From the IMG/VR virus record IMGVR_UViG_3300025674_000014: DNA of 64,000 nucleotides. One strand, written 5' to 3'. This DNA comes from a virus. Its lineage: Duplodnaviria > Caudoviricetes. Under the pieces are notes generated by a model. The model was not told where the DNA came from. It ran no database searches and saw nothing but the letters and a program-made list of their open reading frames with translations. Below are positions 40,005 to 64,000 of this stretch, one piece after another (position 1 is the first letter of the stretch; each line of letters begins with the position of its first letter). A program made the position numbers and the translations under genes.

Positions 40005-40885
40005 ATAACACAAACATTAGTACACACCTAGGTCAGAGTAGTCAGTATAAGTCGCAATATGACCCTGGATTGTTGGTAAGAGAGCCTCGTCAAAGTAACC
40101 GTTCATATCTTGATATTCAAGATGACAATCTACCGTTTGTAGGTTATGATGTATGGAATGGTTATGAAGTATCTGCTTTGACTAATAACGGTAGACCAGT
40201 AGCTGCAATTGCTAAAGTAATTTACCCGTGTGATAGTAAGTATATCGTTGAATCAAAGTCTATGAAACTATATTGGAATAGTTTCAATATGACCAAGCTT
40301 GGTGATACATCTCAGGATGTGATGGGTGAAATTGAAAAGAGAGCTATTGAAGACCTATCAAACTTTCTTGAAACAAACGTAAGTGTTCAATTGTTTTTCG
40401 ATGATACAGAAATTGAAGAAGGTTTAGACTTTTCTGTTATTGAAAATATCGATATTACAGTTGGTCAAGACGTTGTATTTGATACTTATAACGAAACCCC
40501 TGAACTGTTAGAAGTAGAAGAGCATGATGAGCCTCAAGATATTAATTATATTTCTGGCTTGTTGAAGTCAAATTGTAGGGTAACTTCACAACCTGATTGG
40601 GGTGATGTATACATTTACATGAGAGGTAATAAAGTACCCACTAAAGAATCACTTCTAAAGTATATCGTATCATTTAGAGATGAATGTCATTTTCATGAAG
40701 AGATTTGTGAATGTATTTATAAGAGACTATGGGATACTTTCTCTCCCGAAGAGTTATCTGTAATGTGTTTATATGTTAGAAGAGGTGGCTGGGACATTAA
40801 TCCTCATAGGTGCTCCCATGAGCATCTTTATAATGAGCTTATATTCGATATAGGTAAGATCTTTCCTAAGCGTCCTAGACAATAG
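39992..40885 (+). CDS. queF: NADPH-dependent preQ0 reductase, bimodular type
   Basis: ESKSMKLY, KSNCRVTSQPDW, FHEEICE and YVRRGGWDINP. Confidence 0.92.
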   Translation: MEQLDNTNISTHLGQSSQYKSQYDPGLLVREPRQSNRSYLDIQDDNLPFVGYDVWNGYEVSALTNNGRPVAAIAKVIYPCDSKYIVESKSMKLYWNSFNMTKLGDTSQDVMGEIEKRAIEDLSNFLETNVSVQLFFDDTEIEEGLDFSVIENIDITVGQDVVFDTYNETPELLEVEEHDEPQDINYISGLLKSNCRVTSQPDWGDVYIYMRGNKVPTKESLLKYIVSFRDECHFHEEICECIYKRLWDTFSPEELSVMCLYVRRGGWDINPHRCSHEHLYNELIFDIGKIFPKRPRQ

Positions 40886-45277: not shown

Positions 45278-46339
45278 CTATCCAATCAAGAACAAGGTCG
45301 GTTCAGCATCACCCATACCTGGAGACGCTCCAGTATAAAGTTGCTCTTCTAATTTTTCTTTTTCAGTACGACCTTCTTCTAATAGATCATAATTGAGAAC
45401 ACCGCCTCCAAACAGCTGAACATTACCATATTTACCTCTTACCCTACCAACTACAATTTTGGATAACGCAAGAGCGTATTGGTAAACCCATTCTTCTTTT
45501 ATGACCCACGCTATAGGTTTTTCGACATAACATTCTAAAGTACCCCAAAACTGTTCATCTTTTGGTTCTGGGTACATTTGCATCATTTGAGTACGATCAT
45601 TAAAGTTTATAGCTTTTCTCAATGCTAACATTTTCTCTCTCGTATCAAGCCAATTCTTAAGAGTGTACCAACTTATAAGATCAAATCCATAATTACCCAT
45701 TGAGTAACTGAAGTATGTTTGTTGAGCTAAAGTTTGTTCAATTGTGAATAAAGTGTTAACACCATCAGAGGAACCTACTTCAAATCCGCGAACTGAAACA
45801 ACTTTTCTATAATCATCTAAAAGATAATCATAAGCTTGATTTAACTCTAATTGATTAGGTTTTAAATTATCACCAACTTGATAAATGTATGGGTTGGCTG
45901 CTTCACCAATTACCATTTTACTCAAACTATATAATGGAGCAAATTGTTTACCGCATTTTTCTTCGTATCTGAAATTGAAATTAGGGTTTAATTTTTGAGC
46001 TTCTGTTGTGGCAATTTTTGTTTTGTAATCGGAAAAATCTGAATCTCTTCTAGCAGAAAATAAAACATCCATTCTTATACCCTTACCTCTTTCATATAAG
46101 TCGGAGTTAAAAATAATATATTCTCTAGTATAACCAGCAAACTTTGTAAACATTTCAACAGCTATACTAATGTTTTCATAAAGCTGATCTTGATGAATTT
46201 CAACGTTAATTAATGGAGCTCCTAAAGATCTTGAAATACGTTCCCCTAATCTACTATAACCGCAAATAACATTGTTAAGGTTAGTAGAGTAAAAAGAACT
46301 CAAGGGCATTGCTTGACTGCAGTCGATTACGGTTGCCAT
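45278..46339 (-). CDS. gp13: neck protein (gp13-like)
   Basis: LGAPLINVEI..DQ, WVYQYALALSK and GRVRGKYG.VQLFGG. Confidence 0.8.
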   Translation of the reverse strand: MATVIDCSQAMPLSSFYSTNLNNVICGYSRLGERISRSLGAPLINVEIHQDQLYENISIAVEMFTKFAGYTREYIIFNSDLYERGKGIRMDVLFSARRDSDFSDYKTKIATTEAQKLNPNFNFRYEEKCGKQFAPLYSLSKMVIGEAANPYIYQVGDNLKPNQLELNQAYDYLLDDYRKVVSVRGFEVGSSDGVNTLFTIEQTLAQQTYFSYSMGNYGFDLISWYTLKNWLDTREKMLALRKAINFNDRTQMMQMYPEPKDEQFWGTLECYVEKPIAWVIKEEWVYQYALALSKIVVGRVRGKYGNVQLFGGGVLNYDLLEEGRTEKEKLEEQLYTGASPGMGDAEPTLFLIG

Positions 46340-48230: not shown

Positions 48231-50369
48231 TTAATTAACGGTTTCTGATATAACAGCAAACTCTTGAATAAGATAATCTCTATCATCTTCACTATCTTCT
48301 AAAACAAAATGAGAGTCAATAATAGATGGCCATGTTTCTAACATTATACCATTATTATCAGATGCAAGATATATTGTCTGTCTTGGAGGTTGTTCAACAT
48401 TAGATTGAAATAATTTTAATAATAAACTTTGTAATTTATATACTTCACCTAAAACTCTATTTACAACAGCTCTAGAAAATATTTCATTAGTACCAATATA
48501 ATTATTCATACTAGTTTGATAACCGGTAATGTTTAAATCATCTTCGGAAAAATATGTAACACCGGTAAATTCAAAACTTTCATCCCTTAGTAATTTAGAA
48601 TTTATTTTTCTATAGATAAAGTTTCTTAGTTGTAGAGTATTCTTTAAAATTTTGTTAATAGACTTATTATAAGCAAAACTAGAAGCAAATTCTTCTTTCT
48701 TAAGATGTAATTCATCTTTGCTAAAAATTTGAAAGTTATAATCAGATAACAAATTAAAATAAAATTCATCTTCTTCAAATACAAATATTATACCTCTTCC
48801 ATTATTATTACTATAAGCATAAATTACATCTTTATTATCTACAGTCTCTATAAGGTTAAAAAATTTATAACTAATATCAGAACTAGTAATGTTATAATTT
48901 GATAGATTAAATTTACCTATGATAACTTCTGTATCAGTAAAATATTTGTATATATTTTTTCTAGTTAATGCATAAAAGTTATTATTAATAGGAGATATTA
49001 TTAAATCTAAAAATTCATCAGTATTATTAACTGATATATCTTTTTGTCTTAATAAATTTAGATCAAAATCAAATACTAATAATGTACCATTAGCAGTTAA
49101 CCAATAAAAATTATCATTAAAAATCTTAATTGCAACAGGAGGGTAAATTTTATAAGTAGCTGCTTTTCTCAAATTTTTAACAAACCCTAAATCTTTATCA
49201 TAAACTTTAATACATTCATTACCTTGATCTAAAACATAAAGATTGTTTTTGTAAAAATCTAAAATTTTCGGTTTATCGAATGAATAATTACTTCTTACTT
49301 CCCCTTCACCGCCTATGATTTCAGTTTCGTAATATTTGTTATTTCTATGATCGTCATGAGTAGTAAAACCAGATATGTTTAGTCTAACAACGTTATTTCT
49401 ACTTTCATCTGATATGTATAAACTATCTTGATAAACTGCTGATCCATTTATCTTTAAGAAGTTAAGTTTATTATTTTCACCATACGTATCAGTATAACCA
49501 GCAAATACAAATTCATTAGTAGTTGTGTTGGAACTCAATGATTGTATTCTAGTATCAGAACATAAAAATATATTTTTAAATCCAGGTAAGTTAGCTCTAC
49601 TTAAACTTAAATTATTTGCCTGGTCAAAGTTAGAAGGGTTATTTTTTACTTTACTCGGGGATGTACTGTTGTTGGTAAAAACTATTGGGCTTTCTCCTTG
49701 TATTACCGTGCAAACAATATTATCGCCAAATAAATGAGTGTAAGTATCTGTAGATCTATTACCGAAAAAGGTACCTCCATTTTCTCTAGTCGAAAAAACT
49801 AATTCAAATTTAGACTCATTGTAAGAGGCTAATAAATTTTGTTCTATTAAAATTTCAACAACTCTTTTAGATGATAGATCATCACCGTTATACTCACCAG
49901 ATAAATCTATAATATAATTTACCCCTACAGGTAAAAAGTCTACTTCAGGGTTATAAACATTATTATATGTAAAAATTATATTGATAGTAGTACCGTCATA
50001 ATTAGTCAAATAAAAATAAGGTATTAAATTTGCTATTACATTACCATCACTATCAAATTTCAATCCAGATCTAAAAAAATTACCTTTTAAGTAAACAGAC
50101 ATTACTTTACCTAAATTATTATTTTCACTACTACCTAACCAACCTTTATAATTTTTTGGTAAGTCGGGATTTGCAAATTTAGAAACAGAGTAAAGATACA
50201 TTAAGTTAGATTGTAAAAAATCTAAACTTTTATTAAAATTAAATCCGTTAGCTAATTCATTTACCCCAAGTTCGACATCTTTTAATTGATAAGGTAAATC
50301 AATAATAGAACTTAAACTTCTATTAAACGAATAATTATAATTTTCAAATTCTGTTGAAATATTAATCAT
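48231..50369 (-). CDS. structural protein with NHL-like beta-propeller
   Basis: LYISDESRNNV and LYVLDQGNECIKVYD repeats. Confidence 0.6.
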   Translation of the reverse strand: MINISTEFENYNYSFNRSLSSIIDLPYQLKDVELGVNELANGFNFNKSLDFLQSNLMYLYSVSKFANPDLPKNYKGWLGSSENNNLGKVMSVYLKGNFFRSGLKFDSDGNVIANLIPYFYLTNYDGTTINIIFTYNNVYNPEVDFLPVGVNYIIDLSGEYNGDDLSSKRVVEILIEQNLLASYNESKFELVFSTRENGGTFFGNRSTDTYTHLFGDNIVCTVIQGESPIVFTNNSTSPSKVKNNPSNFDQANNLSLSRANLPGFKNIFLCSDTRIQSLSSNTTTNEFVFAGYTDTYGENNKLNFLKINGSAVYQDSLYISDESRNNVVRLNISGFTTHDDHRNNKYYETEIIGGEGEVRSNYSFDKPKILDFYKNNLYVLDQGNECIKVYDKDLGFVKNLRKAATYKIYPPVAIKIFNDNFYWLTANGTLLVFDFDLNLLRQKDISVNNTDEFLDLIISPINNNFYALTRKNIYKYFTDTEVIIGKFNLSNYNITSSDISYKFFNLIETVDNKDVIYAYSNNNGRGIIFVFEEDEFYFNLLSDYNFQIFSKDELHLKKEEFASSFAYNKSINKILKNTLQLRNFIYRKINSKLLRDESFEFTGVTYFSEDDLNITGYQTSMNNYIGTNEIFSRAVVNRVLGEVYKLQSLLLKLFQSNVEQPPRQTIYLASDNNGIMLETWPSIIDSHFVLEDSEDDRDYLIQEFAVISETVN

Positions 50370-53300
50370 CTTTTTCCCAAACTATTTTGTTAAGTTTTGT
50401 ATTAGCAGGTAAAACTTTATAAATGCTTGAAACTATTTCTTCACTAATATCATCTTGTAAAGGTTTATCTGTTATACCTGTATCTTGAATAGATATATTT
50501 ACCAGGTTACTCTTTCTACCAGGTAATTTATTTTTGAAAAATCTGTCAATTGTTTCAACATAATTCCTTTTACCTGTTGGTATTTCAAAATGTAAGTCTT
50601 GTATTTTATATTTACTTCTCACTATGTTTGCTATATCGTATAGATATAACGGTGTGTTATACATATAAAAATCTTTTAGCTTAAAGCTACCGTAGTTGTA
50701 ATAATTTACATCGTTAAGATTATCATTAAGTTTATTATTACCATAACTTGCTTCTGTACCAATATAAATTGAATTATCAAAGATAGTACCAAAACTATAT
50801 TTACCAGATTCAAAAGCATACTTATCTACTGATTTGCCATCAATATAAAATTGAAACAAACCATTAGTTGTATCAAATGTTACTGTAAAATTATGATAAC
50901 CTGGTGAAAGATTTGATAATGGGTAAGTTAAAGTTGCAGTTTCAAAAGTCTGAACATCGTAAATATTAGGTAACTTTATTTTACAGGTTATATTTTCACC
51001 ATTATCAAAATTATTTCTTAGATAATCATAATTATTAATGTTATAATTTTTTAAGAACCCGGTCTCAATATTAGATGTTATACCGGTTAAAGTATTTGAA
51101 CTATTTTCTAAACTATCATCTACTCTAGAATAAACTAATTTACCATCTGTATTATTAGAGCTAAGACTTATAATAGATAAAAGATTGTTAATTTTCTCTT
51201 TACCGTAAAATTCATCAATAATATCGATACCTTTACCTACACTATTTTCAAATCCAGTTACTGAAGATAACATTACAATTTTAGATCCACCGAATCCAAT
51301 TTGATTATCTAATTTATCTATAACTGCAATTTTGTTATTATCGTAAATGCAATATAATGAACCATCTTCAATAAAGACGTAATCGTTTATATCAGCATCA
51401 ATCTTTATACCTATGTTTGTTGTTGCTATATCATAATAGAATAAATTGTTAGAGTTAATATAGTATATTTCATTGTTGTAAATTTTAGGATTATAACCAG
51501 ATAGTAAAAATACCGAACTATCTTTTACAACAATACTTTGAGGATCACCACCACTTATATCGACAATTTTATAATTTAAATTATTATTTTGTTCATATGT
51601 AAGTGTGTTACAATCAACTCTATACCAATCATTGTTAATTAATACGAATGAAAAATTACCATAACTATAAAAGCTTTTATCACTGCTTGTTTTTAAGAAT
51701 GGTAAAAATCTTTTATCTAATGTAGTACCAATATAGCTATATTTTGTAACATAACCTTCACTATCAAAGACTAAAAATATACTATTAGGTTCAAATCTTT
51801 GTACGCTAGTTATATTATTTTCAGTTGTAATTGTTCTTATAACTGACCCTTGAGTGTTAAAAAGATAAACTTTATTACCTTCAAAAGCTACTGAATGGGG
51901 TGTTATTTTTCTATAATTAAAAATCCCGAACCCTTTATTAGTATAATTACCAATTATTTGGGATCCGAAAGGTAAGTTCCAGTTTTCATTACTAATATCA
52001 ACGGATAAACTAAAATTATCAAAAGGCGAAACAGAATCTAATGGTTCTGATAATACTTTAGCAAAATAATTACTATCAAAAATTATCTCATTTTCATATA
52101 CTTTTCTATCATATGTAATTGTAAAATAATAATCAATATTGTTAACAATAAGATTTGATGATAATGAATCAACAAATAATTTACTATTTTCATTACCTAC
52201 ATGATGATAAGCATATAACGCCCCTTTTTCAAAAGTTAAATTACTCGTAACATCATATAAATCGTAAACATTATTATTGTTATTTGTAATTTGAGATAAA
52301 CTTTCAAAATCAGTTTGAAGTAAAACATTATAAGGATTTACACCAACTAAAGCATCTATATAACTTAACTTTGATGGGTTATAATATCTATCTAACCAAA
52401 CACCTTCATCATTAATATCATTTCCACCAGATAACCAAGAGCAAAGATAAGCATTAGTTTGTGTATCTGAAACCCCTCCAAAAGGTGAGCTATATTTGTA
52501 ATTGTTAAGCTTCTTAAAAATTTTATCAGAGTAGTACGGGTTATCGCTTGAAGTAGCTCCAGATATAGCTAAACTACTATCATTAATATTAAGTTTTTCA
52601 TACGGATATATATTATATGGCATATGAAAATAAGTTAATGCATCACTTTTAAAAGTTTTAGTTAAAGTGTAACTACTATATCCTAAACCAATATTTGAAT
52701 TACCTTTTTCTTGTTTTACACCGGTAAATAAATTTTCGTAATATCTATGTTTAAAAGAAGGCTGATTTAAAAATACACCTCCTTGTGATTGGGTGTTTTC
52801 TACTGTCTTTTGATTTTTTAAGTTAAGTATGTTTAAATTTAAATTTCTATTCAAATATGGGTCTATAGAATAATACTCATTATTGAAAAGATAATTAGTA
52901 TCAAAATCATATGTACTTTTTTCTTCATCAACAATAATTTTAGTATTATCTAAACTTTGTTTATATGTATAATTAGAAGTAGAAATTATATCGTTTAAAG
53001 TAGATGTGTTAACTCTTAATTTAAACAATTCAAAATTCTTAAATGGTTGTACTCTATTATTTGAAGGAGGTAGTTTAAATGATAGAGAGTTGGTTTCTTG
53101 AGAAACATATAAGTATTGAGTTTTATCGTAAATCTTTTTACTGAAAGAAATTACGTTATTATTTCTATCATAAACATATTGAAAGGTATTGATATCATTA
53201 TTACCAATAGCATCATAACCAGTTAACATTATAATTTCAGAGTTAACATAATTGTATGATAAGTATCTTACTAAATTACCTTCTGTATGTTTAATTTTAC

Positions 53301-53694
53301 AATTAAGATTATCTATAAAAAATATTTCAAAGAATGATTTGTTATCTGAATAGTCTGCAAAGGTTAATTGAGTTAATGGATTTTTACCTGCAGGAATTGC
53401 AGATAAATACATGCTAGTTGATTCAGATATAATATAGGATGTAAAGGTATAATTTTCTGGTACATCTAATATATCAACTGATAAGAAGTCATTGTAATTG
53501 AAATCATCAGATAGAAAGAAAGAGGAATAATTGTTTATCGTAGTATCTTTTGTACCAGATAAACAATTATCCAATGTTAAATCAAACCCATGATAGCTAT
53601 TACGATTAGTGTTTTTAAAACTAACGTTGTTGTCTAACTCATAAGTTGCACTTAAACTTGCAAATGTGGAACTATTAAGTACCTTTACTTCCAT
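50362..53694 (-). CDS. large structural protein with LamG/ConA-like domain
   Basis: C-terminal YHNFTVTFD..G.FQFYIDG...IYIG...FYMYNTPL. Confidence 0.65.
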   Translation of the reverse strand: MEVKVLNSSTFASLSATYELDNNVSFKNTNRNSYHGFDLTLDNCLSGTKDTTINNYSSFFLSDDFNYNDFLSVDILDVPENYTFTSYIISESTSMYLSAIPAGKNPLTQLTFADYSDNKSFFEIFFIDNLNCKIKHTEGNLVRYLSYNYVNSEIIMLTGYDAIGNNDINTFQYVYDRNNNVISFSKKIYDKTQYLYVSQETNSLSFKLPPSNNRVQPFKNFELFKLRVNTSTLNDIISTSNYTYKQSLDNTKIIVDEEKSTYDFDTNYLFNNEYYSIDPYLNRNLNLNILNLKNQKTVENTQSQGGVFLNQPSFKHRYYENLFTGVKQEKGNSNIGLGYSSYTLTKTFKSDALTYFHMPYNIYPYEKLNINDSSLAISGATSSDNPYYSDKIFKKLNNYKYSSPFGGVSDTQTNAYLCSWLSGGNDINDEGVWLDRYYNPSKLSYIDALVGVNPYNVLLQTDFESLSQITNNNNNVYDLYDVTSNLTFEKGALYAYHHVGNENSKLFVDSLSSNLIVNNIDYYFTITYDRKVYENEIIFDSNYFAKVLSEPLDSVSPFDNFSLSVDISNENWNLPFGSQIIGNYTNKGFGIFNYRKITPHSVAFEGNKVYLFNTQGSVIRTITTENNITSVQRFEPNSIFLVFDSEGYVTKYSYIGTTLDKRFLPFLKTSSDKSFYSYGNFSFVLINNDWYRVDCNTLTYEQNNNLNYKIVDISGGDPQSIVVKDSSVFLLSGYNPKIYNNEIYYINSNNLFYYDIATTNIGIKIDADINDYVFIEDGSLYCIYDNNKIAVIDKLDNQIGFGGSKIVMLSSVTGFENSVGKGIDIIDEFYGKEKINNLLSIISLSSNNTDGKLVYSRVDDSLENSSNTLTGITSNIETGFLKNYNINNYDYLRNNFDNGENITCKIKLPNIYDVQTFETATLTYPLSNLSPGYHNFTVTFDTTNGLFQFYIDGKSVDKYAFESGKYSFGTIFDNSIYIGTEASYGNNKLNDNLNDVNYYNYGSFKLKDFYMYNTPLYLYDIANIVRSKYKIQDLHFEIPTGKRNYVETIDRFFKNKLPGRKSNLVNISIQDTGITDKPLQDDISEEIVSSIYKVLPANTKLNKIVWEKDD

Positions 53695-53721: not shown

Positions 53722-56325
53722 TTAGTTTTCTCTTCTATCTTCAGCTTTGTAATATTCAAACCTTTCATGATAGCAAGGAGTTGCTAATAGAATTGCAGGT
53801 TTAATATGTCCCTTAACTGTTTGCTGATAAATGTATGACATCCAAGTTTGTTCAAACGGTGCTGCCCATTTCTCTTCAAGGAACATCTTCTTATTACCTT
53901 CTTTTGAAACTAACTGAGGCCAGTTACAATAGAATACCTCTCCATCAATGTAAGGTAAACCGTCCATATTGTAAATATGATTGTATTTAACTAATGGAGC
54001 GTTAGGATCTAAACCGTTAGCCGGTAAATATTTCTTTTCTGGCCATACTTGCTCTCTCAGTTCTTGAGGTACATTATACCAAGACCATTGAGTACGATTA
54101 TCTCCAAAGAATTCAGTAAAGCAGAATTTAAGCAAATCAAATCCATGCTTTTCCATAATCTTGTGAGTCTTATCAAACAAGTTAGGTATATATCTTCTAA
54201 AACCACTTTCACAATAACCAACTTCTTTATCGTGAATATACATATCATCTTCAAGAAAGATATAATAATCACCGTCTGTCTTGTCAAAGTGTTCGGCTAC
54301 CCACTGTCTACCTCCGCAAATACCGATATTATCTCGTTTATGCTCTGTAAAATTATAAAGATCAAAAATAGCTTCATAATCAGCATCAGTAGATCTATCA
54401 GTCGAATTATTCAATACAACTTTTTCACATTTCTCAAACCATTTATCAGTAGTTGACCAATTTTCACAAAGTCTTAAGAATTGAGCAGGTGAATTATAAG
54501 TGATCACGTAAAGATATGTCTTAAGATCTTCAATAGGTCTAGTTTTTCTCGTCGTGATTAACTCAACGGTATCATTTTTTAGATGCTCAAAGAAACATTC
54601 AAACAGACCGTCATCTCTGATCATGGTTCTGTCTACTAAATCTTCATGTTTGTAAGTCAAAATAGTGAATACACTCTCTTCTGTACCCATTTGACCTTCA
54701 TCTAATGAATTTTTTAAGTAATCGTAGTAAAGACTATTAACTTTTGGTATATAATCCTTATGACCACCAAATACACCTGCTCTTGCAACGCGGGTTGTCT
54801 TATCTACATTACAATATGTGCGTAATCTTTCATGATCAAAGCCATGAATTTCATAATTTTCGTACGGAAAACATACGAATAAAAATTTCTGCAAGTAATG
54901 ATGAATTTTATTAATAACTTTATCGTGAGTAAAGTACCCTTGATGAACTGTACTAGTAATACCACCATCAACCCATAAGAAATAATCGGTATTAAATGGA
55001 TTTGAAATAGCAGCATCATTGAGTAAAAACATCTTACTCATTACCATTGGATTATACAGTTCTAACCCAGCCTGAGTACTCTCTGCGAGCCAGGATGCTT
55101 TGTTATACCAGTCTGGGTTAGAACGAATCTCTTGTACTTTGTCGTAGAATTCAAACCAAGTTTTAAACTCCTCAGCTTCTTTAATAATAACACTAGTGTT
55201 ATCCCTACTTCTACGCTCCCATACGAAATCTTCATGTGCTTTTCCGATAAAAATAATCATCGGAGCATCAGTTTTTAATAGTTCATCAAATTTATCTAGA
55301 TAATGTTGGAATGGTCTATTAAACCCTCCCTCCATTTCTCCACGTTTAAGGTCCCAAATACCAGTCACTATAGTCGTTTTAGAAGGTCCTTCGTTAGATA
55401 TTGTTCTCTTTGGTTCTTCTTTGTCTTCTACTATAGTTCCATCTTGGAAATAATCACCTTCTTCAACGTTTTCAGGTACATCTATAAAGTTACCATCGGC
55501 ATCGTTTCTAAAACCATTACCTTCAACGCAAAGGCCAAGTTTTTCAACCTCAACCCAACGTCTATTTGTCTTAAATTTCTCAATCTCACTACTATGGAAA
55601 GCCATAATATCACAACCTTCCTGATTAGTAAGAATGTAACCTGCAGCAATTAACCTATCAAATAGTTTAACTAACTTATCTTCTTCATTATTGAATAACT
55701 CAAACTTAATTACTTTAGGTAAGTATTTTTCTAAAGTAAATCCTAAAAACACTTCATAATCAAAACCTTCTGTATCAACTGTACAGAAATCAATCTTTTC
55801 AATACCGTGTTTTTCTAATAGTGAATCAGCAGTAACTACATCTACTTCAATAAGATCACCGTGTTCTTCAAGTAATGCTTTAGTTTCAGCATCTGTTTCA
55901 AAGCCATTTTTAGGTGGTATAAAAGAACCCATACCTACAATAGCTTCATGTAAACCATCTGATTCAATCTTACTCCATGGAATGTAACACATTAGCTCTT
56001 TTCGTTCAGTATCTGAAACAGCTACATTCTCCGTAATACAACCTTCTGGTAATTCAGTGGTTACATACTTTGTAAGTGCTTTAAATGCATCAGGTATTGG
56101 TTCAACGAACATACCTCTCCATTTATATGTTACCATATATGCAGAAATAGTATCATGAAAAGTACCATCACAAGAACCAATCGATAGATTGAACATAGGG
56201 TCGCCTTTTCGACCATAGTGATGCAAAATTATATCATAAATTCTCTCGACTTGCCAGGTGTTGAATTTTGTTGAAATTCTACCTTCATAGTCATCCCCTA
56301 CTATATGATTGTGAATATTACTCAT
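53722..56325 (-). CDS. fusion of FkbM methyltransferase, HtrL/WlaTC glycosyltransferase and GT-A domain
   Basis: FkbM: IGSCDG, FVEP, VDTEGFD. HtrL: TIVTGIWD, NPFNTDYFLWVDGG, GVFGG, MGTEES. GT-A: YYIFLEDD. Confidence 0.8.
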   Translation of the reverse strand: MSNIHNHIVGDDYEGRISTKFNTWQVERIYDIILHHYGRKGDPMFNLSIGSCDGTFHDTISAYMVTYKWRGMFVEPIPDAFKALTKYVTTELPEGCITENVAVSDTERKELMCYIPWSKIESDGLHEAIVGMGSFIPPKNGFETDAETKALLEEHGDLIEVDVVTADSLLEKHGIEKIDFCTVDTEGFDYEVFLGFTLEKYLPKVIKFELFNNEEDKLVKLFDRLIAAGYILTNQEGCDIMAFHSSEIEKFKTNRRWVEVEKLGLCVEGNGFRNDADGNFIDVPENVEEGDYFQDGTIVEDKEEPKRTISNEGPSKTTIVTGIWDLKRGEMEGGFNRPFQHYLDKFDELLKTDAPMIIFIGKAHEDFVWERRSRDNTSVIIKEAEEFKTWFEFYDKVQEIRSNPDWYNKASWLAESTQAGLELYNPMVMSKMFLLNDAAISNPFNTDYFLWVDGGITSTVHQGYFTHDKVINKIHHYLQKFLFVCFPYENYEIHGFDHERLRTYCNVDKTTRVARAGVFGGHKDYIPKVNSLYYDYLKNSLDEGQMGTEESVFTILTYKHEDLVDRTMIRDDGLFECFFEHLKNDTVELITTRKTRPIEDLKTYLYVITYNSPAQFLRLCENWSTTDKWFEKCEKVVLNNSTDRSTDADYEAIFDLYNFTEHKRDNIGICGGRQWVAEHFDKTDGDYYIFLEDDMYIHDKEVGYCESGFRRYIPNLFDKTHKIMEKHGFDLLKFCFTEFFGDNRTQWSWYNVPQELREQVWPEKKYLPANGLDPNAPLVKYNHIYNMDGLPYIDGEVFYCNWPQLVSKEGNKKMFLEEKWAAPFEQTWMSYIYQQTVKGHIKPAILLATPCYHERFEYYKAEDRREN

Positions 56326-57670
56326 TATAAATTCCGTTCGTTATTTCATGTTTTGAGTGAGGTAAGTGGATAGGGTGTGGACCAATTCTATCTAACCAAC
56401 CTTTGCTAGCGCTGTGAGGTAACACAGCCCATGATTTAGGTTCTTTTTCACTGCAGAACTTCAAAAAGAAACTTGCAGCATCTTTGGCACATTCTTCATC
56501 AATACGCCATCTACCTAAGTCTTCTCTAAAAATTTCTTCACCATCTGCATCATGAGCTGTACAACACCAGAAATCACAATCAGCATGATCAGGTGTTGTG
56601 ATATCTGCATTAGCTATCCAAATATCTACACACCAGTTCCTACCAAATGCATTCTCCCAATCTTCTTTAGATGCAAATATTTCTGGATTATCTTTATAAT
56701 TAGGTGTTGGTGGCTCGTTTAACTGAGGCCAAGTATACTCCATAACACCTCTTCTATCGAATTTGATACCTGTATAACATTCAAACTCTTCTAAAGTACG
56801 TTCAGTACCGAAACCATACTTACCAAAGTCAAATGTTTGTTCTGTTTCATCCATTCCAAATAAAGTTCTGTTTCTGAAATGACACGCATTATTAACAGAT
56901 GACCAACCATAACTACTACCTGAATCTACATCATGGTCATCCCAATGTTTATCTCTTCCCTCTCTAGTATATTCATGCCAAGCAATAAGCTTATGAGGGT
57001 GAAATAGATCATAACCATGGGTAAATGCTCTTGCTGCAATGCTAATCTCTTCTCCATGAAAATAATAATCAGGATCGTGAGGTATCTCAGTACAAAACTG
57101 ACCTAAGGTAAAACAAAAATGAGCAGAATAAAATCTGGATCTCATTGGTTCGGTTCTAACTCTATAATTAGGCATTGTAGCTGGTATAAAGAAAATAGCA
57201 CCTTCTGGAATAAATCTATCAAATTCCATAAACCAAGGATCGTTTTCTCTACCATCGGGGTCATTATGAGGTTTATATGAAGGTAAATATGCAGTAAGTA
57301 AAGGTTTCTTATGACCTTTCTTTTGTAATTGTTTTACCATATCAATGCACAAGGTATCCCAACCTTCTGCAAACCTGTGATGTGAATCTAGCTGAAGGGT
57401 ATATGTTTCGCCTTTATATTCATTCTGAACAATATTTCTAGCCCAACATACACCTCTGGCTTCTTTCCAATCTACATCGATAATTCTAAATCGTGGGTCG
57501 TTTTCAAACTCTGGAATTTCATCAAACGTATCACCTGGCTTAAATTGTCTACAAATACCAAATCTTAAATTCTCTGGTTTATTTGCATTATTAATACAGT
57601 CGTGTAACGTTTTAGGTAATTCTGGGTCTCTATACGAAGCAATTTGTATAAAAATAGTTTCTTCTTTCAT
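56318..57670 (-). CDS. GT60-like GlcNAc-transferase (PF11397) plus C-terminal domain
   Basis: IFIQIASYRDPE, GVCWAR, QLDSHHRF and FHGEEIS. Confidence 0.85.
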   Translation of the reverse strand: MKEETIFIQIASYRDPELPKTLHDCINNANKPENLRFGICRQFKPGDTFDEIPEFENDPRFRIIDVDWKEARGVCWARNIVQNEYKGETYTLQLDSHHRFAEGWDTLCIDMVKQLQKKGHKKPLLTAYLPSYKPHNDPDGRENDPWFMEFDRFIPEGAIFFIPATMPNYRVRTEPMRSRFYSAHFCFTLGQFCTEIPHDPDYYFHGEEISIAARAFTHGYDLFHPHKLIAWHEYTREGRDKHWDDHDVDSGSSYGWSSVNNACHFRNRTLFGMDETEQTFDFGKYGFGTERTLEEFECYTGIKFDRRGVMEYTWPQLNEPPTPNYKDNPEIFASKEDWENAFGRNWCVDIWIANADITTPDHADCDFWCCTAHDADGEEIFREDLGRWRIDEECAKDAASFFLKFCSEKEPKSWAVLPHSASKGWLDRIGPHPIHLPHSKHEITNGIYNE

Positions 57671-57688
57671 AGCATCCTGTTATTATGT

Positions 57689-59215
57689 TTACTTTGGATC
57701 AACAATATCTTTAGTAATCTTATCTAACCAACCATTATTATGGGTGTAAGGTATTACTGTATATGATGCAGGTGTTTCAGGGCATGTCAATGACATAGGA
57801 AATCTAGCTGCATATGGATCTTGTCTCTCGTCGTAAATTTCTTGAATCTTACCAATGTCGTAATCTTCTCTCTTTAGCTCCTTACCTTCTGCATCATGCA
57901 CACCTACATACCAAAACTCAGTATCTTCATAAGTCTCAGGTAACTCATCCCAAGGGACAAAGAAGTCTATACACCAGTTCTTACACCATTCTGTTTGATC
58001 ATGAGGTGTAATATTTTCATAACTAGGGTTTTTATAATCTCTACAATCAGGAGAAATAGCTCTTAGTTTAAAATTAATACCAGCGTACTCTTCATATTGT
58101 TCTACTGTTCTAACTTTACCAAACCCATATTCATCCCCGAAGTTAATTTGATTAGGATCTTCACCATCCATACCAAACAGAATACGGTTACGCTTATGAC
58201 ATTGATCATTTACTTCATACCAGTCATATTCTCTACCGCTTGATCTATTATTATCATCCCAATGGTGAGGTCTACCTTTTCTTGTATATTCATGATATGC
58301 AATAATCTTATGAGGATGGAATAAATCATACCCGTGAGTAAAAGCTCTTACAGCAATACTAATCTCTTCACCGTGGAAGTAATAATTAGGGTCGTGAGTT
58401 ACTTCTTTACACATCTTACCAGATGCAAAAGCAAAGTGAGCTGAATAAAATCTACTTGGAATAGGTTCTCTTTGTTCGTCTCTTTCCATTGACGTGGGTA
58501 AAAAGAACATTGCACCTTCTGGAATGAATCTATCGATAATCATCTTCCAAGGATCTACTTCAAAACCATTAGCAAGCGTACGTTCACCTGTACCGTCTTT
58601 AAATTCTAACCAAGGTTTATAGCTGGTTATGTAACCGGTAAATAGTGGTTTTTCGTGACCTTTATCTTGCATGTAATAATACATGCTTTTCATTTCTGAA
58701 TCCCAGTGATCTACAAATCTATGATGTGAATCAATTGCTAAAGTAAATTCATCTTCACACCATAAGTGTTGTAATGAATGTCTAGCCCAGCATGTACCGT
58801 GACCTCTTCTAGCATCTACTTTAATTACTTGAAATCTATCATCATTTTGCATGAATTCGAACATGTCCTTATCATATTCATCATCTGGGTGCCATTGCCA
58901 GCAGATACCAAATCGTAAATTTTCAGGGTTATCAGCCCTTTTAATCATATCTTTAATAGTTGGAATGAGTTCAGGGTCTCTATATGCAGCAATCTGAACA
59001 AAAATACGTTGATTACCTTTTCTATTTGGATCTACACTTTCATGGTAATATGTACCTACTTTATCCCAGGATTCATTTGTTTGTTGTTTACCTGGGGTGC
59101 TAATTTGTAATGAAGGGGTATCTTGTTGTGAATGTTGTACTTCTACAACTTTTTCACTACTAGTACTTTTTACAGACTTTAATCTATTTTTCCTAACAAT
59201 CTTAATACCTGGCAT
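57689..59215 (-). CDS. GT60-like GlcNAc-transferase (PF11397) paralog plus C-terminal domain
   Basis: IFVQIAAYRDPE, GTCWAR, AIDSHHRF and FHGEEIS. Confidence 0.85.
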   Translation of the reverse strand: MPGIKIVRKNRLKSVKSTSSEKVVEVQHSQQDTPSLQISTPGKQQTNESWDKVGTYYHESVDPNRKGNQRIFVQIAAYRDPELIPTIKDMIKRADNPENLRFGICWQWHPDDEYDKDMFEFMQNDDRFQVIKVDARRGHGTCWARHSLQHLWCEDEFTLAIDSHHRFVDHWDSEMKSMYYYMQDKGHEKPLFTGYITSYKPWLEFKDGTGERTLANGFEVDPWKMIIDRFIPEGAMFFLPTSMERDEQREPIPSRFYSAHFAFASGKMCKEVTHDPNYYFHGEEISIAVRAFTHGYDLFHPHKIIAYHEYTRKGRPHHWDDNNRSSGREYDWYEVNDQCHKRNRILFGMDGEDPNQINFGDEYGFGKVRTVEQYEEYAGINFKLRAISPDCRDYKNPSYENITPHDQTEWCKNWCIDFFVPWDELPETYEDTEFWYVGVHDAEGKELKREDYDIGKIQEIYDERQDPYAARFPMSLTCPETPASYTVIPYTHNNGWLDKITKDIVDPK

Positions 59216-59236
59216 ATTTTATTTTATGCCAGGTAT
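59205..59236 (-). promoter_or_regulatory. hairpin sequestering the GT60 start codon
   Basis: Perfect 11-bp inverted repeat ATACCTGGCAT / ATGCCAGGTAT with a 10-nt loop. Confidence 0.5.
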
Positions 59237-59249
59237 CGTTGATTTCAAC

Positions 59250-62200
59250 TTAGTTAATACATTTTACTTTATAATCAAACCATTCTTGATGTAAACGAAC
59301 ACAGTTAATGCAAGCTGAATTATGAATACAAGCAGCATTATTAACATTAAGAAATGCAATTCCTACAAATTGTCTTGTTGAACCCCATAAATTTAAACAA
59401 GAATCATTAAAATCTAGCTGTTTACAAACGGTTACTACTTGATTAGTAAAAGTATTTGGCATGTTTGCGCCTATACTACACCATATTATTCCGTTACCAA
59501 AGCTAAATAAATAACATACCGGGTAATTACTACTAGTGTTATTTCCATAAGATACATTTATTTTATAATATAAACAATCAATCATACTCATACAGTAATT
59601 AGAACTACAAACTGAACATTTTACCATACATGCCTTATTTGCCATCATAGGAATGCAATTTGTACAACACATTGTATAATAGGCATACCACCCACCATCA
59701 CTTCCCGGAAGACAAATATTATGTACATATTGACCTCCGCATGTAAAACCACATGTGGTGTTTCTACAACAATAAGCTAATGAATAATTTTCACACCCTA
59801 CATTTGCCAATATGTATTTACAACCGCAACCCCAACATAAACTAGTTGAATCATAACCGGCACAAAGATATTTGTCACACATATTATCTATATGATAATT
59901 ACTCCACCAATTAGATTGCCATGCATAAATACATCTACCTGAATATCCGCAATCATAAAGATTAGCTAATGCACATAAATTACATGTACTACAAGCGGTA
60001 TAAATAGCAGGCATCCAAGAATCATGTTGAGTATACCCAGACGGTTTTGGAGCACACCAACACCAATATAGAGGTGTACCTGAAGCTCGACAATTGTTTA
60101 CGTAATAACTATAAGTAAAACAATTACTACTATCTGCCAACATATTTGTAGTTGCAAATGTCATAGCAGGGTTATATACTTCACAAGAATAACAAAATTT
60201 TATACATTGACCGGTAGTTAAAGTAGAATAATCTACAGAACATGTTATAGTGCTATATGAAGATACGTTAGAGTTAATAGTAGGGTAGTTATATGTAGCT
60301 TTAAATGTACCAGCGCTACAAAAATAAGGGTCACACCCATATGTAATAAACCCGCCAAATGGAAAACATATTTTCCATGTCCATCCAAAAACACAAGAAG
60401 TGCTTATACATCTAACTTTATACCCGTAACCACTGGTTGGTGTACCCCAGGGTAATATATAGGTGTTAGAAGTATTACCATAATTGTCTGTTCTACTTGT
60501 CCACCAAGGGTGCGCTTTTGCTTGATTAAAGCATCTAAATCCTTGCGTACCTGTACATTTTGTTTCGGGCATTAAATTAGTACAAGCATAACTACCGCTG
60601 GTATAATTAGCACAGGTATAGCTAGTTATTGTTGGACAAGTCGCGCCTGAACATATTAAATCAGTTACACTTGAACATTCATTAGGCACGGGAGGTGTGC
60701 TCGTAACTGTGGGTGTTCTTGTCTGTGTAGGTGTATGTGTACTTGTTCTGGTCGGCGTTCTCGTCTTGGATTCTGTAATAGACTTCGTTCTGGTTGGTGT
60801 TCTTGTCTTCGTTCTAGTACGTGTAGGTGTATAGGTTGGTGTTCTTGTACGCGTAGGTGTTCTTGTTCTCGTGTTAGTAGGCGTTTGTGTACGCGTACGT
60901 GTGTAGGTTGGTGTTCTTGTACGTGTACGTGTACGTGTTTGGGTTGGTGTTCTCGTACGTGTACGTGAATGTGTAATAGATTTCGTTCTGGTTGGTGTTT
61001 GTGTACGTGTAGGTGTACATGTTCTCGTGCGTGTATAGGTTGGTGTTCTCGTACGTGTACGTGATTGTGTAATCGACTTCGTTCTGGTTGGTGTTCTCGT
61101 ACGTGTAGGTGTTTGTGTACGTGTACGTGTTTGGGTTGGTGTTCTCGTACGTGTACGTGATTGTGTAATCGACTTCGTTCTGGTTGGTGTTCTCGTACGT
61201 GTAGGCGTACATGTACGTGTTCTTGTTCTCGTACGTGTAGGCGACTGGGTTGGTGTTCTTGTACGTGTAGGTGTTTGTGTACGTGATCTTGTACGTGTAC
61301 GTGTACGTGTAGCTGATTGAGTTGGTGTTCTTGTACGTGTAGGTGTTTGTGTACGTGTTTGGGTTGGTGTGCGCGTTCTAGTAGGTGTTTGTGTACGTGT
61401 CTTAGTTCTTGTTTGCGTTCTCGTACGTGTATAGGTTGGTGTTCTTGTTCTCGTACGTGTATATGTAGGAGTTTGTGTACGTGTATTTGTTGGTGTACGC
61501 GTACGTGATGCTGTACGTGTCGGTGTTTGTGAACGAGTAGGTGTTTGTGTACGTGTACGTGTTGCTGATCTGGTCGGTGTGCGTGTACGTGTACGTGTCT
61601 GTGTAGGTGTTTGTGTACGTGTTTGTGTTCTCGTTCTACTTGGTGTAGGTGTTTGTGTTATTGATTTAGTACGTGTAACGGTTGGTGTTCTTGTACGTGT
61701 TACAGCTGGTGTTGCTGTTCTGGTAGGTGTTCTTGTACGCGTAGCTGTCTGAGATTTTGTTCTCGTTTGCGTAGCTGTACGTGTATTTGTTGGTGTTTGC
61801 GTACGTGTCGGTGTTTGTGTACGTGTCTTAGTTCTTGTTCTCGTACTCGTAGCTGTTCTCGTATTAGTAGCTGTCTGCGTATTAGATTTTGTTCTAGTAG
61901 CTGTTGGCGTTTGTGTACGTGTCTTAGTAGCTGTTCTAGACTTAGTACGTGTTGGTGTTTGCGATCTCGTACGTGTATTGGTTGGTGTTTGCGTACGTGT
62001 AGCTGTTTGAGTGTTAGATTTCGTTCTCGTCTGGGTTGGTGTTCTTGTACGCGTACGTGTAGATGTTTGTGTTGCTGTACGTGTTGATGTTGGTGTTTGT
62101 GTTCTGGATCTTGTACGTGTACGTGTCGGTGTATTTGATCTCGTACGCGTACGTGTAGCAGATTGTGTAGGTGTTTGTGTACGTGTCTTAGTTGACGTAT

Positions 62201-64000
62201 TAGTAGCTGTCTGCGTTGCTGTCTTAGTGTTTGTTGGTGTTGGTGTTTCAGTACGTGTTCTAGTACGTGTTCTTGTGGGAGATTGTGTTCTCGTTGGCGA
62301 TTGTGAACGTGTTCTTGTAGGTGTCTGTGTTCTTGTTCTTGTAGACGTTCTTGACTGTGTAGACGTTTTCGTCTTTGTAACTGTATTAGTACGTGTGTTT
62401 GTAGGAGTTTGTGTTCTTGTCTGCGTTGCTGTCTGCGTTGCTGTCTTAGTGTTTGTAGGTGTTTGTGAACGCGTACGTGTTACCGTTTCTGTTGCTGTTC
62501 TGGTAGACGTTCTTGTTTGTGTGGCTGTTCTTGTTCTCGTTGGCGTTTCTGTGCGTGTACGAGTTGGTGTACTACTACGTGTTTTAGTATTTGTAGCGGT
62601 TTGTGTGGTTGTTCTAGTGCTTGTCTTAGTAGGTGTATGTGTTCTAGTAGGTGTTTGTGTACGTGTTCTTGTATTAGTTTCGGTTCTTGTCTGCGTATTT
62701 GTTCTTGTAGATGTAGGTGTTTGTGTATATGTAGGTGTTGATGTTCTTGTATTTGTAGCGGTCTGCGTGTAAGTTGATGTAGATGTTCTTGTGTTAGTAG
62801 CAGTTTGGGTATTTGTTTTTGTTTGTGTTGGTGTTCTCGTTGATGTTTGAGTTGATGTTTTAGTAGATGTTCTTGTTTGTGTGGCTGTACGTGTGTTAGA
62901 TTTCGTTCTCGTTTGTGTGCGTGAACGTGTTTGCGTAGCAGTTTGTGTTGCCGTACTTGTAGGTGTTTGTGTTCTTGTACGTGTACTAGTAGCGGTATTT
63001 GTAGGGGTTTGTGTTCTTGTACTTGTACTGGTTTTGGTATTTGTTGGTGTTTGTGTTCGCGTACGTGTATTTGTTGGCGTTTGTGTACGTGTTTCAGTTG
63101 GTGTTTGTGTACGCGTACGTGTATTTGTTGCTGTTTGAGTAGGGGTTTGTGTTCTTGTTTGCGTTGGTGTCGGATAACGTGAAACAGTTGCAGTAGATGT
63201 TTGTGTGTTCGTTCTCGTCTGTGTAGATGTTCTCGTCTGCGTAGACGTTCTTGTCTGCGTAGATGTTCTTGTATTGGTTGGTGTTCTTGTACGTGTACGA
63301 GTGTTAGTTGCTGTTGGCGTTTGTGTACGTGTACGTGTTTGTGTATTTGTACGTGTATTTGTCGGTGTTTGTGTTCGTGTACGTGTACTAGTATTTGTAG
63401 GTGTTTGTGTGCGTGTACGTGTTTCTGTTGGTGTAGGCGTTTGTGTTCTCGTTCTTGTCTGAGTAGCAGTTCTTGTCTGTGTTGATGTACGTGTGTTAGT
63501 AGCGGTTTGCGTAGACGTTTGCGTAACCGTTCTCGTATTAGTAGCTGTTTGAGTAGCTGTTTGTGATGACGTTCTTGTTTGTGTTGGTGTACTTGTAGCT
63601 GTTCTAGAAGCTGTCTGGGTAGGTGTTCTAGTACGTGTAGCTGTCTGGGTTGGTGTTCTAGTTTGGGTTGGTGTGCGTGTACGTGTTACGTCAGGTGTAT
63701 CTGTTTGACTTGGTGTTCTCGTAAACGTAGGTGTTCTTGTTTGTGTTCCGGTCTGCGTTGATGTTGGTGTTTGTGTACGTGTACGTGTTTGTGTATTTGT
63801 TGGTGTTTGGGTGCGTGTACGGGTTTGTGTACGTGTACGTGTATGTGTTGGTGTTTGCGTTCTTGTCTGCGTCGGTGTTTGTGTACGTGTACGTGTGTTA
63901 GTAGATGTTTGTGTATTTGTTTTTGTTCTTGTTTGAGTAGCTGTTCTTGTCTGCGTAGATGTTCTCGTCTGTGTTGGTGTTTGTGTTCTCGTCTGAGTCG
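59250..64000 (-). CDS. giant mucin-like (Thr-X)n protein with Cys-rich C-terminal domain, 5'-truncated
   Basis: Read triplet by triplet, the frame has no stop from 64000 to 59250. The track start at 60689 is only the first in-frame GTG. At least 1,583 codons. Confidence 0.85.
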   Translation of the reverse strand, partial: TQTRTQTPTQTRTSTQTRTATQTRTKTNTQTSTNTRTRTQTPTQTRTQTPTHTRTRTQTRTRTQTPTNTQTRTRTQTPTSTQTGTQTRTPTFTRTPSQTDTPDVTRTRTPTQTRTPTQTATRTRTPTQTASRTATSTPTQTRTSSQTATQTATNTRTVTQTSTQTATNTRTSTQTRTATQTRTRTQTPTPTETRTRTQTPTNTSTRTRTQTPTNTRTNTQTRTRTQTPTATNTRTRTRTPTNTRTSTQTRTSTQTRTSTQTRTNTQTSTATVSRYPTPTQTRTQTPTQTATNTRTRTQTPTETRTQTPTNTRTRTQTPTNTKTSTSTRTQTPTNTATSTRTRTQTPTSTATQTATQTRSRTQTRTKSNTRTATQTRTSTKTSTQTSTRTPTQTKTNTQTATNTRTSTSTYTQTATNTRTSTPTYTQTPTSTRTNTQTRTETNTRTRTQTPTRTHTPTKTSTRTTTQTATNTKTRSSTPTRTRTETPTRTRTATQTRTSTRTATETVTRTRSQTPTNTKTATQTATQTRTQTPTNTRTNTVTKTKTSTQSRTSTRTRTQTPTRTRSQSPTRTQSPTRTRTRTRTETPTPTNTKTATQTATNTSTKTRTQTPTQSATRTRTRSNTPTRTRTRSRTQTPTSTRTATQTSTRTRTRTPTQTRTKSNTQTATRTQTPTNTRTRSQTPTRTKSRTATKTRTQTPTATRTKSNTQTATNTRTATSTRTRTKTRTQTPTRTQTPTNTRTATQTRTKSQTATRTRTPTRTATPAVTRTRTPTVTRTKSITQTPTPSRTRTQTRTQTPTQTRTRTRTPTRSATRTRTQTPTRSQTPTRTASRTRTPTNTRTQTPTYTRTRTRTPTYTRTRTQTRTKTRTQTPTRTRTPTQTRTQTPTRTRTPTQSATRTRTRTRSRTQTPTRTRTPTQSPTRTRTRTRTCTPTRTRTPTRTKSITQSRTRTRTPTQTRTRTQTPTRTRTPTRTKSITQSRTRTRTPTYTRTRTCTPTRTQTPTRTKSITHSRTRTRTPTQTRTRTRTRTPTYTRTRTQTPTNTRTRTPTRTRTPTYTPTRTRTKTRTPTRTKSITESKTRTPTRTSTHTPTQTRTPTVTSTPPVPNECSSVTDLICSGATCPTITSYTCANYTSGSYACTNLMPETKCTGTQGFRCFNQAKAHPWWTSRTDNYGNTSNTYILPWGTPTSGYGYKVRCISTSCVFGWTWKICFPFGGFITYGCDPYFCSAGTFKATYNYPTINSNVSSYSTITCSVDYSTLTTGQCIKFCYSCEVYNPAMTFATTNMLADSSNCFTYSYYVNNCRASGTPLYWCWCAPKPSGYTQHDSWMPAIYTACSTCNLCALANLYDCGYSGRCIYAWQSNWWSNYHIDNMCDKYLCAGYDSTSLCWGCGCKYILANVGCENYSLAYCCRNTTCGFTCGGQYVHNICLPGSDGGWYAYYTMCCTNCIPMMANKACMVKCSVCSSNYCMSMIDCLYYKINVSYGNNTSSNYPVCYLFSFGNGIIWCSIGANMPNTFTNQVVTVCKQLDFNDSCLNLWGSTRQFVGIAFLNVNNAACIHNSACINCVRLHQEWFDYKVKCIN
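60690..64000 (-). repeat. degenerate 6-bp-period coding repeat (Thr-X)n
   Basis: Plus strand shows recurring GTACGT, GTTCTT, GTTGGT and GTTTGT units. Protein reads TPTRTRTQT-like. Confidence 0.95.
61038..61205. repeat. perfect 72-bp direct repeat inside the Thr-X array
   Basis: 61038-61109 is identical to 61134-61205. Confidence 0.9.

Follow-up and report, generated by a model that had tools for sequence, protein, structure and literature searches.

A phage gene cassette pairing GT60-type glycosyltransferases with a giant Thr/Ser-repeat protein: a candidate module for protein O-glycosylation

Why would a phage carry, beside a giant threonine-repeat protein, two members of a glycosyltransferase family that is treated as protist or eukaryotic, and in which every characterised member glycosylates polypeptides (PMC8724618, PMC6939170)? 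The question is raised by a 64,000-nucleotide stretch of the virus record IMGVR_UViG_3300025674_000014 (Duplodnaviria; Caudoviricetes), the whole of which we call the window. At 53722-64000, on the minus strand, it holds a cassette of four tightly packed genes: a giant gene with a Thr/Ser-X dipeptide array, two genes of glycosyltransferase family 60 (GT60), and one gene that fuses a methyltransferase domain to two glycosyltransferase-like domains. An earlier note on this DNA, made from the letters alone, had described four adjacent co-oriented genes, and all four do share the minus strand, with gaps of 34, 18 and 27 nt and one 8-nt overlap. We propose, at a probability of roughly 60%, that the cassette is a phage-borne module for O-glycosylation of protein in the cytoplasm, with the gene for its main substrate next to those for the enzymes. 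The note's claim of mucin-type O-glycosylation gains support from enzyme family, fold and co-occurrence; transfer to Thr-X sequence, GlcNAc as the sugar, glycan extension, O-methylation and location on the virion are the parts that we infer. The cassette comprises the following features (aa, amino acids).

60684..63998, minus strand: Thr/Ser-X dipeptide array of the giant gene, the final 1,105 residues of a longer array (translation, composition and run analysis)
59250..60683, minus strand: Cys-rich C-terminal domain of the giant gene, 477 aa with 52 Cys, plus the stop codon (composition; orphan domain)
57689..59215, minus strand: GT60a, 508 aa, PF11397 glycosyltransferase with a hydrophilic N-terminal extension of ~65 residues (PF11397 at 3.7e-65)
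56318..57670, minus strand: GT60b, 450 aa, PF11397 glycosyltransferase with a beta-rich C-terminal domain at ~343-433 (PF11397 at 1.9e-69)
55651..56181, minus strand: FkbM-type methyltransferase domain of the fusion, residues 49-225 (PF05050 at 5.7e-17; TIGR01444)
54631..55380, minus strand: HtrL/YibB (WlaTC/HtrL) domain of the fusion, residues 316-565, with an invariant W451-x-D453 (PF09612 at 2.4e-11)
53725..54528, minus strand: third domain of the fusion, residues ~600-867, GT-A fold with an invariant E692-D693-D694 (structure model)

The identity of the two GT60 enzymes carries much of the argument. GT60a and GT60b scored 221.1 and 235.3 bits against PF11397, far above the cut-off of 21, with profile positions ~2-350 of 352 covered, and both carry the D-S-H motif that the earlier note had read in them. 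GT60a additionally matched phrog_24687 ('glycosyltransferase') at 8.5e-133, and the two proteins are 48% identical to each other. Across an alignment of 41 homologs that includes GT60a, D95-S96-H97 and H232 (GT60b numbering) were invariant; carrying over what is known of GT27, we take D95, H97 and H232 to be ligands of Mn2+ and the UDP-sugar. Structural comparison, which the earlier note had framed around polypeptide GalNAc-transferases (ppGalNAc-Ts), ranked Dictyostelium Gnt1 nearest to GT60b, with only ppGalNAc-Ts next in line. The AlphaFold2 model (predicted local distance difference test [pLDDT] 91.4, predicted template modelling score [pTM] 0.90) found as its best Swiss-Prot match the Skp1-hydroxyproline GlcNAc-transferase Gnt1 (Q8T1C6; E 3.5e-24, TM 0.61/0.65, 24% identity, residues 1-322), with all further top matches being ppGalNAc-Ts. 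Against the PDB, ppGalNAc-Ts filled ranks 1-37, and the first other family was GlfT2 at rank 38. Searching PDB sequences with profiles from the GT60 alignment, or from that of the fusion, returned nothing meaningful.

The phage enzymes therefore resemble the protist GT60 proteins (Dictyostelium Gnt1 and the pp-alphaGlcNAcT of Dictyostelium and Trypanosoma cruzi) in PF11397 membership, in the DxH and distal His, and in the Gnt1 fold. They also appear to be soluble and cytoplasmic like Gnt1. We read no signal peptide and no hydrophobic or membrane segment in the sequences of GT60a, GT60b or the fusion, and so expect all three enzymes to work in the cytoplasm of the host, just as Gnt1 works in that of its own cell. 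Their presumed acceptor is Thr/Pro-rich, as for the mucin-type protist members. Unlike the protist enzymes they are phage-encoded and would work in a bacterial cytoplasm, at 24% identity to Gnt1 and with an activity, sugar and anomer that are at most predicted. A further difference is an extra beta-rich C-terminal domain of ~100 residues, common to phage GT60s and with an invariant W425, which in GT60b lies outside the Gnt1 alignment and may stand in for the lectin domain of ppGalNAc-Ts. With the GT27 ppGalNAc-Ts the phage enzymes share the GT-A fold, the DxH motif, the presence of several paralogs, and dense Thr/Ser/Pro tandem repeats as (presumed) substrate; it is speculation, by analogy with GT27 isoforms, that the two phage paralogs divide labour in the same way. 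They differ in identity (10-15%), in having no ricin-type lectin domain recognisable by sequence, in not being Golgi membrane proteins and in a donor that is probably not UDP-GalNAc. A predicted complex of GT60b with a 61-residue array fragment and Mn scored 0.00 in a run without controls, and is evidence neither way.

The candidate substrate is encoded immediately upstream. The giant Thr-rich protein of the earlier note corresponds to a gene at 59250-63998 (minus strand) whose frame is open at the 5' end, at the window edge, with 1,582 aa inside the window; its array closes, in translation, with the TPTVTSTPP that the note had pointed out. Array residues 1-1105 contain 513 Thr and 70 Ser and hold five unbroken [T/S]-X runs, the longest of 336 residues, with the X position occupied by R (194), Q (101) and P (86), followed by A, N, S and K. 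The array is thus the long Ser/Thr/Pro-rich tandem repeat expected of a mucin-type substrate, in an atypically Arg-rich version. Its DNA is a degenerate period-6 repeat with 60-88% matches, and the Thr-X pattern therefore appears to be kept at the protein level and not to be a fresh product of slippage. An ice- or mineral-binding TxT surface was also considered for the array and was ruled out, as Pro every few positions and the high Arg content oppose a flat beta-sheet face.

The same cassette occurs on four independent, near-identical metagenome contigs (L043-L046), through which alone the 5' part of the giant gene is known. Gene calls for the upstream giant gene give 10,042 aa in L043 (ENA), at least 8,533 aa in another contig and 3,435 aa in a JGI contig. 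Over the last 3,322 residues of the L043 protein, Laminin_G_3 (LamG) domains, which have a ConA-like lectin fold, alternate with T-X arrays, the final one being ~1,350 residues long. The LamG parts match PHROGs annotated 'virion structural protein' and 'baseplate wedge subunit', suggesting at the level of domain annotation that the giant protein has a role in the virion. The Cys-rich end had no match in Pfam, NCBIfam or the Atlas, and a search of 1.8 billion representatives returned only its own fragment; the 10,042-aa homolog was also unreturned there, so very long proteins are possibly missing from that set. Relatives L005 and L007 carry unrelated ends in place of the Cys-rich domain. In L006, whose enzymes are 76% identical, the giant Thr-X gene is swapped for a 1,680-aa fibre of NTTG/NTA repeats (L006:3-8403) with a C-terminal end that by eye resembles an S74-type tail-fibre chaperone, followed by GT2-like, GT4-like and FkbM-like methyltransferase genes and a sulfotransferase (PF13469 at 1.3e-22). 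By analogy, such swapping of tips among relatives is the behaviour of receptor-binding fibres.

We found that the pairing of GT60 genes with Thr-repeat open reading frames (ORFs), which the earlier note had raised for other large phages, recurs both at individual loci and at the genome level. For the locus comparison, 40 IMG/VR loci recovered with GT60b (732 kb) were set against 46 capsid-centred control loci of at least 10 kb each (721 kb), and a Thr-X ORF was defined as a long ORF in which some 100-residue segment is at least 40% Thr. Such an ORF lay within 10 kb of GT60 at 13 of 40 loci compared to 1 of 46 controls (Fisher p = 1.3e-4, and p = 1.2e-5 once duplicate contigs were removed), and five of the eight clusters into which the GT60 proteins fall at 70% identity had a Thr-X ORF somewhere within the locus. 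The arrangement also follows a recurring pattern. The array ORF lies on the same strand as GT60 and stops 34-123 bp short of that gene in the window as well as in L005, L007, L009, L010, L013, L019, L024, L026 and L028, with a gap of ~320 bp in L025, and a locus from an independent scan (L174) likewise has the array ORF upstream of GT60 and co-oriented. Seven loci (L010, L019, L023, L024, L025, L026 and L038) encode a second Thr-X protein, whose start lies 0.4-1.2 kb past the HtrL-GT gene; members of this second family (for example L024:17212-21234, L010:19685-21238 and L023:15942-18035) share a conserved N-terminus, MEF-I-KKNSTLP-LK..., and match phrog_15511 (unknown function). The island of this second clade also holds CmcI-type sugar O-methyltransferases, a GT10 fucosyltransferase and a GT1 enzyme, and is set among PolB and exonuclease genes. 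Because these are replication and not structural genes, membership of a structural module alone fails to explain the linkage.

The enzymes themselves travel as a set. GT60 occurs together with a single HtrL-GT-A ORF in ~30 of the 40 IMG/VR loci and in the phages XacN1 and RAS14, with FkbM fused in about half, and relatives' loci add sugar O-methyltransferases, a GT10 fucosyltransferase, GT1/GT2 enzymes and a sulfotransferase. Metagenomic GT60 homologs number at least 7,985.

At the genome level we searched for a pattern of ten alternating Thr codons, (T-X)10, with the reversed pattern as control (0-3 matches). XacN1 gave 77 matches, and three IMG/VR genomes that have no array neighbouring GT60 gave 11, 1,932 and 6; arrays were thus found elsewhere in four of five GT60 genomes without one within 10 kb, and in eight of nine GT60-bearing phage genomes overall. 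Of five T4-like relatives searched, four (G005-G008) carry PF11397 and PF09612 together with 39-125 (T-X)10 matches, and in G007 and G008 the arrays stand just upstream of GT60. The fifth, G004, is the IMG/VR contig behind L071 (229,717 bp, CheckV 100%, capsid 74% identical); it has no PF11397, no PF09612 and no (T-X)10 arrays, and is a natural negative control for the module.

A cultured example comes from XacN1, one of only four phages (with Xoo-sp13, CM1 and RAS14) that tblastn of GT60b recovered from 50,697 phage records. Purified XacN1 virions show glycoprotein bands positive for periodic acid-Schiff (PAS) stain, which the authors suggest are made by the phage's own transferases; their paper leaves the identity of the bands open, and draws no link from the glycoproteins to the arrays or to the GT60 family (PMC5852040). 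We found that XacN1 ORF334 is a GT60 homolog, 47% identical to GT60b, that ORF330 is an HtrL-GT homolog, and that TPTVTRT-type arrays lie in four large ORFs (ORF174, ORF180, ORF234 and ORF384). XacN1 therefore shares with the window the GT60 homolog, the HtrL-GT ORF and the T-X arrays, in addition to having PAS-staining virions (PMC5852040). It differs in being a Rak2-like jumbo phage, not a T4-like one, whose module sits near replication genes with the arrays elsewhere in the genome.

The remaining gene of the cassette (53722-56325, minus strand, 867 aa) fits the earlier note's reading as an FkbM-HtrL-GT-A fusion, the first two domains being recognised by Pfam and the third by fold rather than by Pfam; with PF11397, the FkbM and HtrL memberships complete the profile matches that the note had anticipated. 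The FkbM domain scored 62.8 bits with PF05050 (cut-off 22.7) and 49.8 with TIGR01444 (37.7). The HtrL domain scored 44.2 bits with PF09612 (24.1) and only 53.6 with the NCBIfam equivalog, far under its cut-off of 264.9; by these scores it is a family member, not a YibB ortholog. The structure model has a pLDDT of 79, with the domains individually confident. Residues 313-575 match the fold of E. coli HtrL (P25666; TM by hit 0.69), and residues ~284-863 align as two consecutive GT-A domains with LH3, COLGALT1, the chondroitin polymerase K4CP, heparosan synthase 2 (PmHS2) and LARGE1/2. The third domain alone matches the folds of LH3, K4CP, TarP, GnT-I and POMGNT1; it had no Pfam match at E <= 0.01 (PF00535 or similar) and no PDB sequence match, while its Atlas neighbours carry PF00535. 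Both W451-x-D453 and E692-D693-D694 were invariant in 21 homologs. LH3 and COLGALT1 act in collagen hydroxylysine glycosylation, and the alignment of these proteins, K4CP and LARGE1/2 with the HtrL-GT-A part extends over ~550-600 residues. Several such tandem GT-A enzymes extend protein-linked glycans or build disaccharide repeats. The likeness is at the level of fold, at ~10% identity and with low TM because domain orientation differs.

Taken as a module, these parts suggest the following mechanism. The substrate would be the giant protein, in which LamG domains alternate with Thr/Ser-X arrays. In the host cytoplasm, the soluble GT60 paralogs would prime the T-X arrays by attaching the first sugar to Thr, with Mn2+ presumably held by the DxH...H residues and a UDP-HexNAc as donor, most likely UDP-GlcNAc from the host pool; the models for this step are cytoplasmic Gnt1 and the protist pp-alphaGlcNAc-transferases acting on their own polypeptide acceptors. 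The HtrL-GT-A part, as a tandem GT-A enzyme, would then lengthen the chain by one or two sugars or by a short repeat, and the fused FkbM domain would O-methylate the glycan, perhaps as a cap. A stiff spacer coated in sugar would result, holding lectin-like domains and a variable Cys-rich tip off the virion. Phages with this pairing thus probably sugar-coat their own appendages, the presence of the glycan being predicted from gene content. We speculate that sulfotransferases in relatives add negative charge that offsets the Arg-rich backbone.

A stronger form of the proposal treats the giant protein as a mucin analogue: a megadalton fibre on which GT60 primes most Thr, the tandem GT-A enzyme builds a repeating disaccharide and an FkbM methyl cap sets its length, producing a bottle-brush glycocalyx. 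Terminal methylation sets the length of some O-antigens. We regard this extended form as doubtful. If it were true, the glycocalyx would shape adsorption, stability, or escape from grazers and enzymes, and polypeptide glycosylation of the GT60/GT27 type would be widespread in the prokaryotic virosphere, beyond eukaryotes.

Several observations weigh against a glycosylation module dedicated to the arrays. The activity of phage GT60 enzymes is predicted from family and fold, and the giant protein is placed on the virion by domain-level annotation. In contrast to classical mucin repeats, the array is extremely basic (net charge ~ +211). Around half of the GT60 loci lack any Ser/Thr/Pro-rich ORF within 10 kb, and direct array adjacency is confined to two of the eight GT60 clusters, meaning few independent events. 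When IMG/VR was searched in reverse for (T-X)15 irrespective of GT60, GT60 or HtrL-GT lay inside 4 of 80 (T-X)15 loci versus 0 of 80 controls (p = 0.06), and of 12 large Thr-X contigs only 5 carried PF11397. Arrays can therefore exist without the module: GT60 predicts arrays well, and arrays predict GT60 only partly. RAS14 has the module and zero (T-X)10 arrays. The GT60 loci without such a neighbour and the case of RAS14 favour an explanation in which phage proteins are indeed glycosylated, but the targets are capsid or tail proteins, as in mycobacteriophages, or the folded LamG domains, and the arrays are plain Pro/Thr-type spacers that carry no sugar and happen to be common in the same large aquatic phages; Thr-X arrays are frequent in viral contigs without GT60, and the glycoprotein bands of XacN1 are not named. 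We consider this unlikely, given that the array ORF stands co-oriented less than 125 bp upstream in two clades, that a second array protein trails the HtrL-GT gene, that GT60, HtrL and arrays are missing together from G004, and that the GT60/GT27 fold belongs to enzymes for extended Thr/Ser/Pro-rich peptides.

Two further explanations would take the enzymes away from protein altogether. Construction or alteration of a non-protein glycan, whether host lipopolysaccharide (LPS), lipo-oligosaccharide or capsule (for superinfection exclusion or release) or a free polysaccharide, with the tie to fibre genes reflecting use of the glycan by the LamG domains, would accord with HtrL/YibB being named from the E. 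coli LPS-core region (NCBI name WlaTC/HtrL glycosyltransferase), with the resemblance of the tandem GT-A fold to the polysaccharide polymerases K4CP and PmHS2, and with JGI labels of cell wall biosynthesis on several GT60 homologs. It is nonetheless improbable: polypeptides are the acceptors of every characterised member of the initiating enzyme's family (PMC8724618, PMC6939170), the cassette showed no membrane segment and no gene for a polyprenol-phosphate transferase, a flippase or polymerase export, and both adjacency to and co-absence with the Thr-X arrays would go unexplained. The arrays would be equally unaccounted for if the enzymes instead glycosylated a hypermodified DNA base, as in T-even phages. 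Here the suggestive evidence is a weak match of the third fusion domain to the T-even DNA glucosyltransferase PHROG (phrog_842, beta-glucosyl-HMC alpha-glucosyltransferase; E 3.3e-5), which also counts against our proposal, as does the position of the XacN1 module beside DNA polymerase. In XacN1, RAS14 and the L013/L024 clade the module adjoins DNA polymerase, RNase H and carbamoyltransferase genes, and the window has a gene for a QueF-type enzyme of the 7-deazaguanine pathway. However, the phrog_842 match spans only ~85 residues in the generic nucleotide-sugar-binding part of the GT-A fold, GT60b is structurally nearest to Gnt1 and ppGalNAc-Ts and not to DNA glucosyltransferases, and no base hydroxymethylase was found in the cassette, leaving DNA decoration very improbable.

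Phages and viruses that modify their own virion proteins with sugars are already known, as are protist GT60 enzymes. Mycobacteriophages (Che8 gp110, Corndog gp38, Myrna) use their own, unrelated glycosyltransferases to modify virion proteins in the host (Freeman et al. 2023, as cited in PMC12363180 and PMC12582341). As those citing papers describe them, the targets are capsid and tail-tube subunits, whereas the candidate target here consists of kilo-residue arrays in a giant fibre-like protein; the tblastn search of GT60b against the 50,697 phage records recovered no mycobacteriophage, in keeping with a different enzyme family. The chlorovirus PBCV-1 protein A064R, with two rhamnosyltransferase domains and a methyltransferase domain (PMC7826918), offers a precedent for the fusion in joining two glycosyltransferase domains and a sugar O-methyltransferase in one viral polypeptide, which itself extends and methylates a virion-protein glycan independently of the host secretory machinery. 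It differs in enzyme families and in domain order (here FkbM, HtrL, GT-A), and its products are N-linked capsid glycans of a eukaryotic virus. We found no paper joining PF11397/GT60 with phages or with Thr-repeat phage proteins. What appears to be new, as far as gene content and order can tell, is that GT60 is abundant in phages and genetically tied to Thr-repeat proteins.

If the proposed O-glycosylation of the arrays is correct, it would constitute a second, mechanistically distinct route to phage virion glycosylation beside the mycobacteriophage one, and would give a function to the very common Pro/Thr-type arrays of giant phage proteins. It would likewise provide a compact pairing of enzyme and substrate, which could be reassembled in E. 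coli to yield mucin-like glycopolymers in the cytoplasm, with XacN1 as a cultured, directly testable case. The proposal is relevant, too, to the way in which large phages display receptor-binding domains and persist outside the host.

The window belongs to a T4-like freshwater phage. The earlier note had placed the cassette directly upstream of the structural block, which is roughly right, except that four ORFs without family matches (1110, 712, 322 and 301 aa) intervene before the first recognisable neck gene, a head-tail adaptor at 45278-46339. Beyond it follow head closure, gp21-type protease, scaffold and gp23-type capsid genes, and a gp5-type baseplate hub is encoded farther along the window. 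Megablast of 20 kb against the 50,697 phage records found no close cultured relative; near-unchanged copies of the element occur in aquatic, freshwater, pond and lagoon metagenomes from at least 10 studies. Two of the intervening ORFs and an RNA hairpin complete the feature list.

48231..53694, minus strand: two large ORFs, 1110 and 712 aa, ~25% G+C (syntenic in L003-L007)
59204..59237, minus strand: RNA hairpin with a 13-bp perfect stem, in the 34-nt gap after the giant gene (folding)

The two large ORFs, which have no family matches in Pfam or NCBIfam, always trail the cassette in L003-L007, its nearest relatives, where at 42-99% identity they have diverged more quickly than the enzymes. We treat them as context only, their apparent link with the glycosylation system being positional. 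A QueF-type nitrile reductase is encoded at 39992-40885 on the plus strand (PF14819 at 3.6e-33, PF14489 at 1.4e-18).

Short contigs from four metatranscriptomes of seawater or salt marsh (X15, X16, X17 and X19) match the three enzyme genes (53722-59215) at 90-99%, and none of them matches the Cys-rich domain. These contigs from RNA libraries probably come from relatives, and transcription of the cassette is not thereby proven. A scan for sigma-70 promoters and terminators gave matches equal to the shuffled expectation, and the T4 late motif TATAAATA was not enriched and was absent from the cassette gaps. The hairpin at 59204-59237 stands out from its background: a 66-nt stretch around it has a folding energy of -22.2 kcal/mol (z = -6.6), which 0 of 200 shuffles equalled, and its 3' arm includes the GT60a start codon (AUG). 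A like stem is present in L006 and absent from L005 and L007. The hairpin may act as a brake on translation of GT60a, or may be a processing site.

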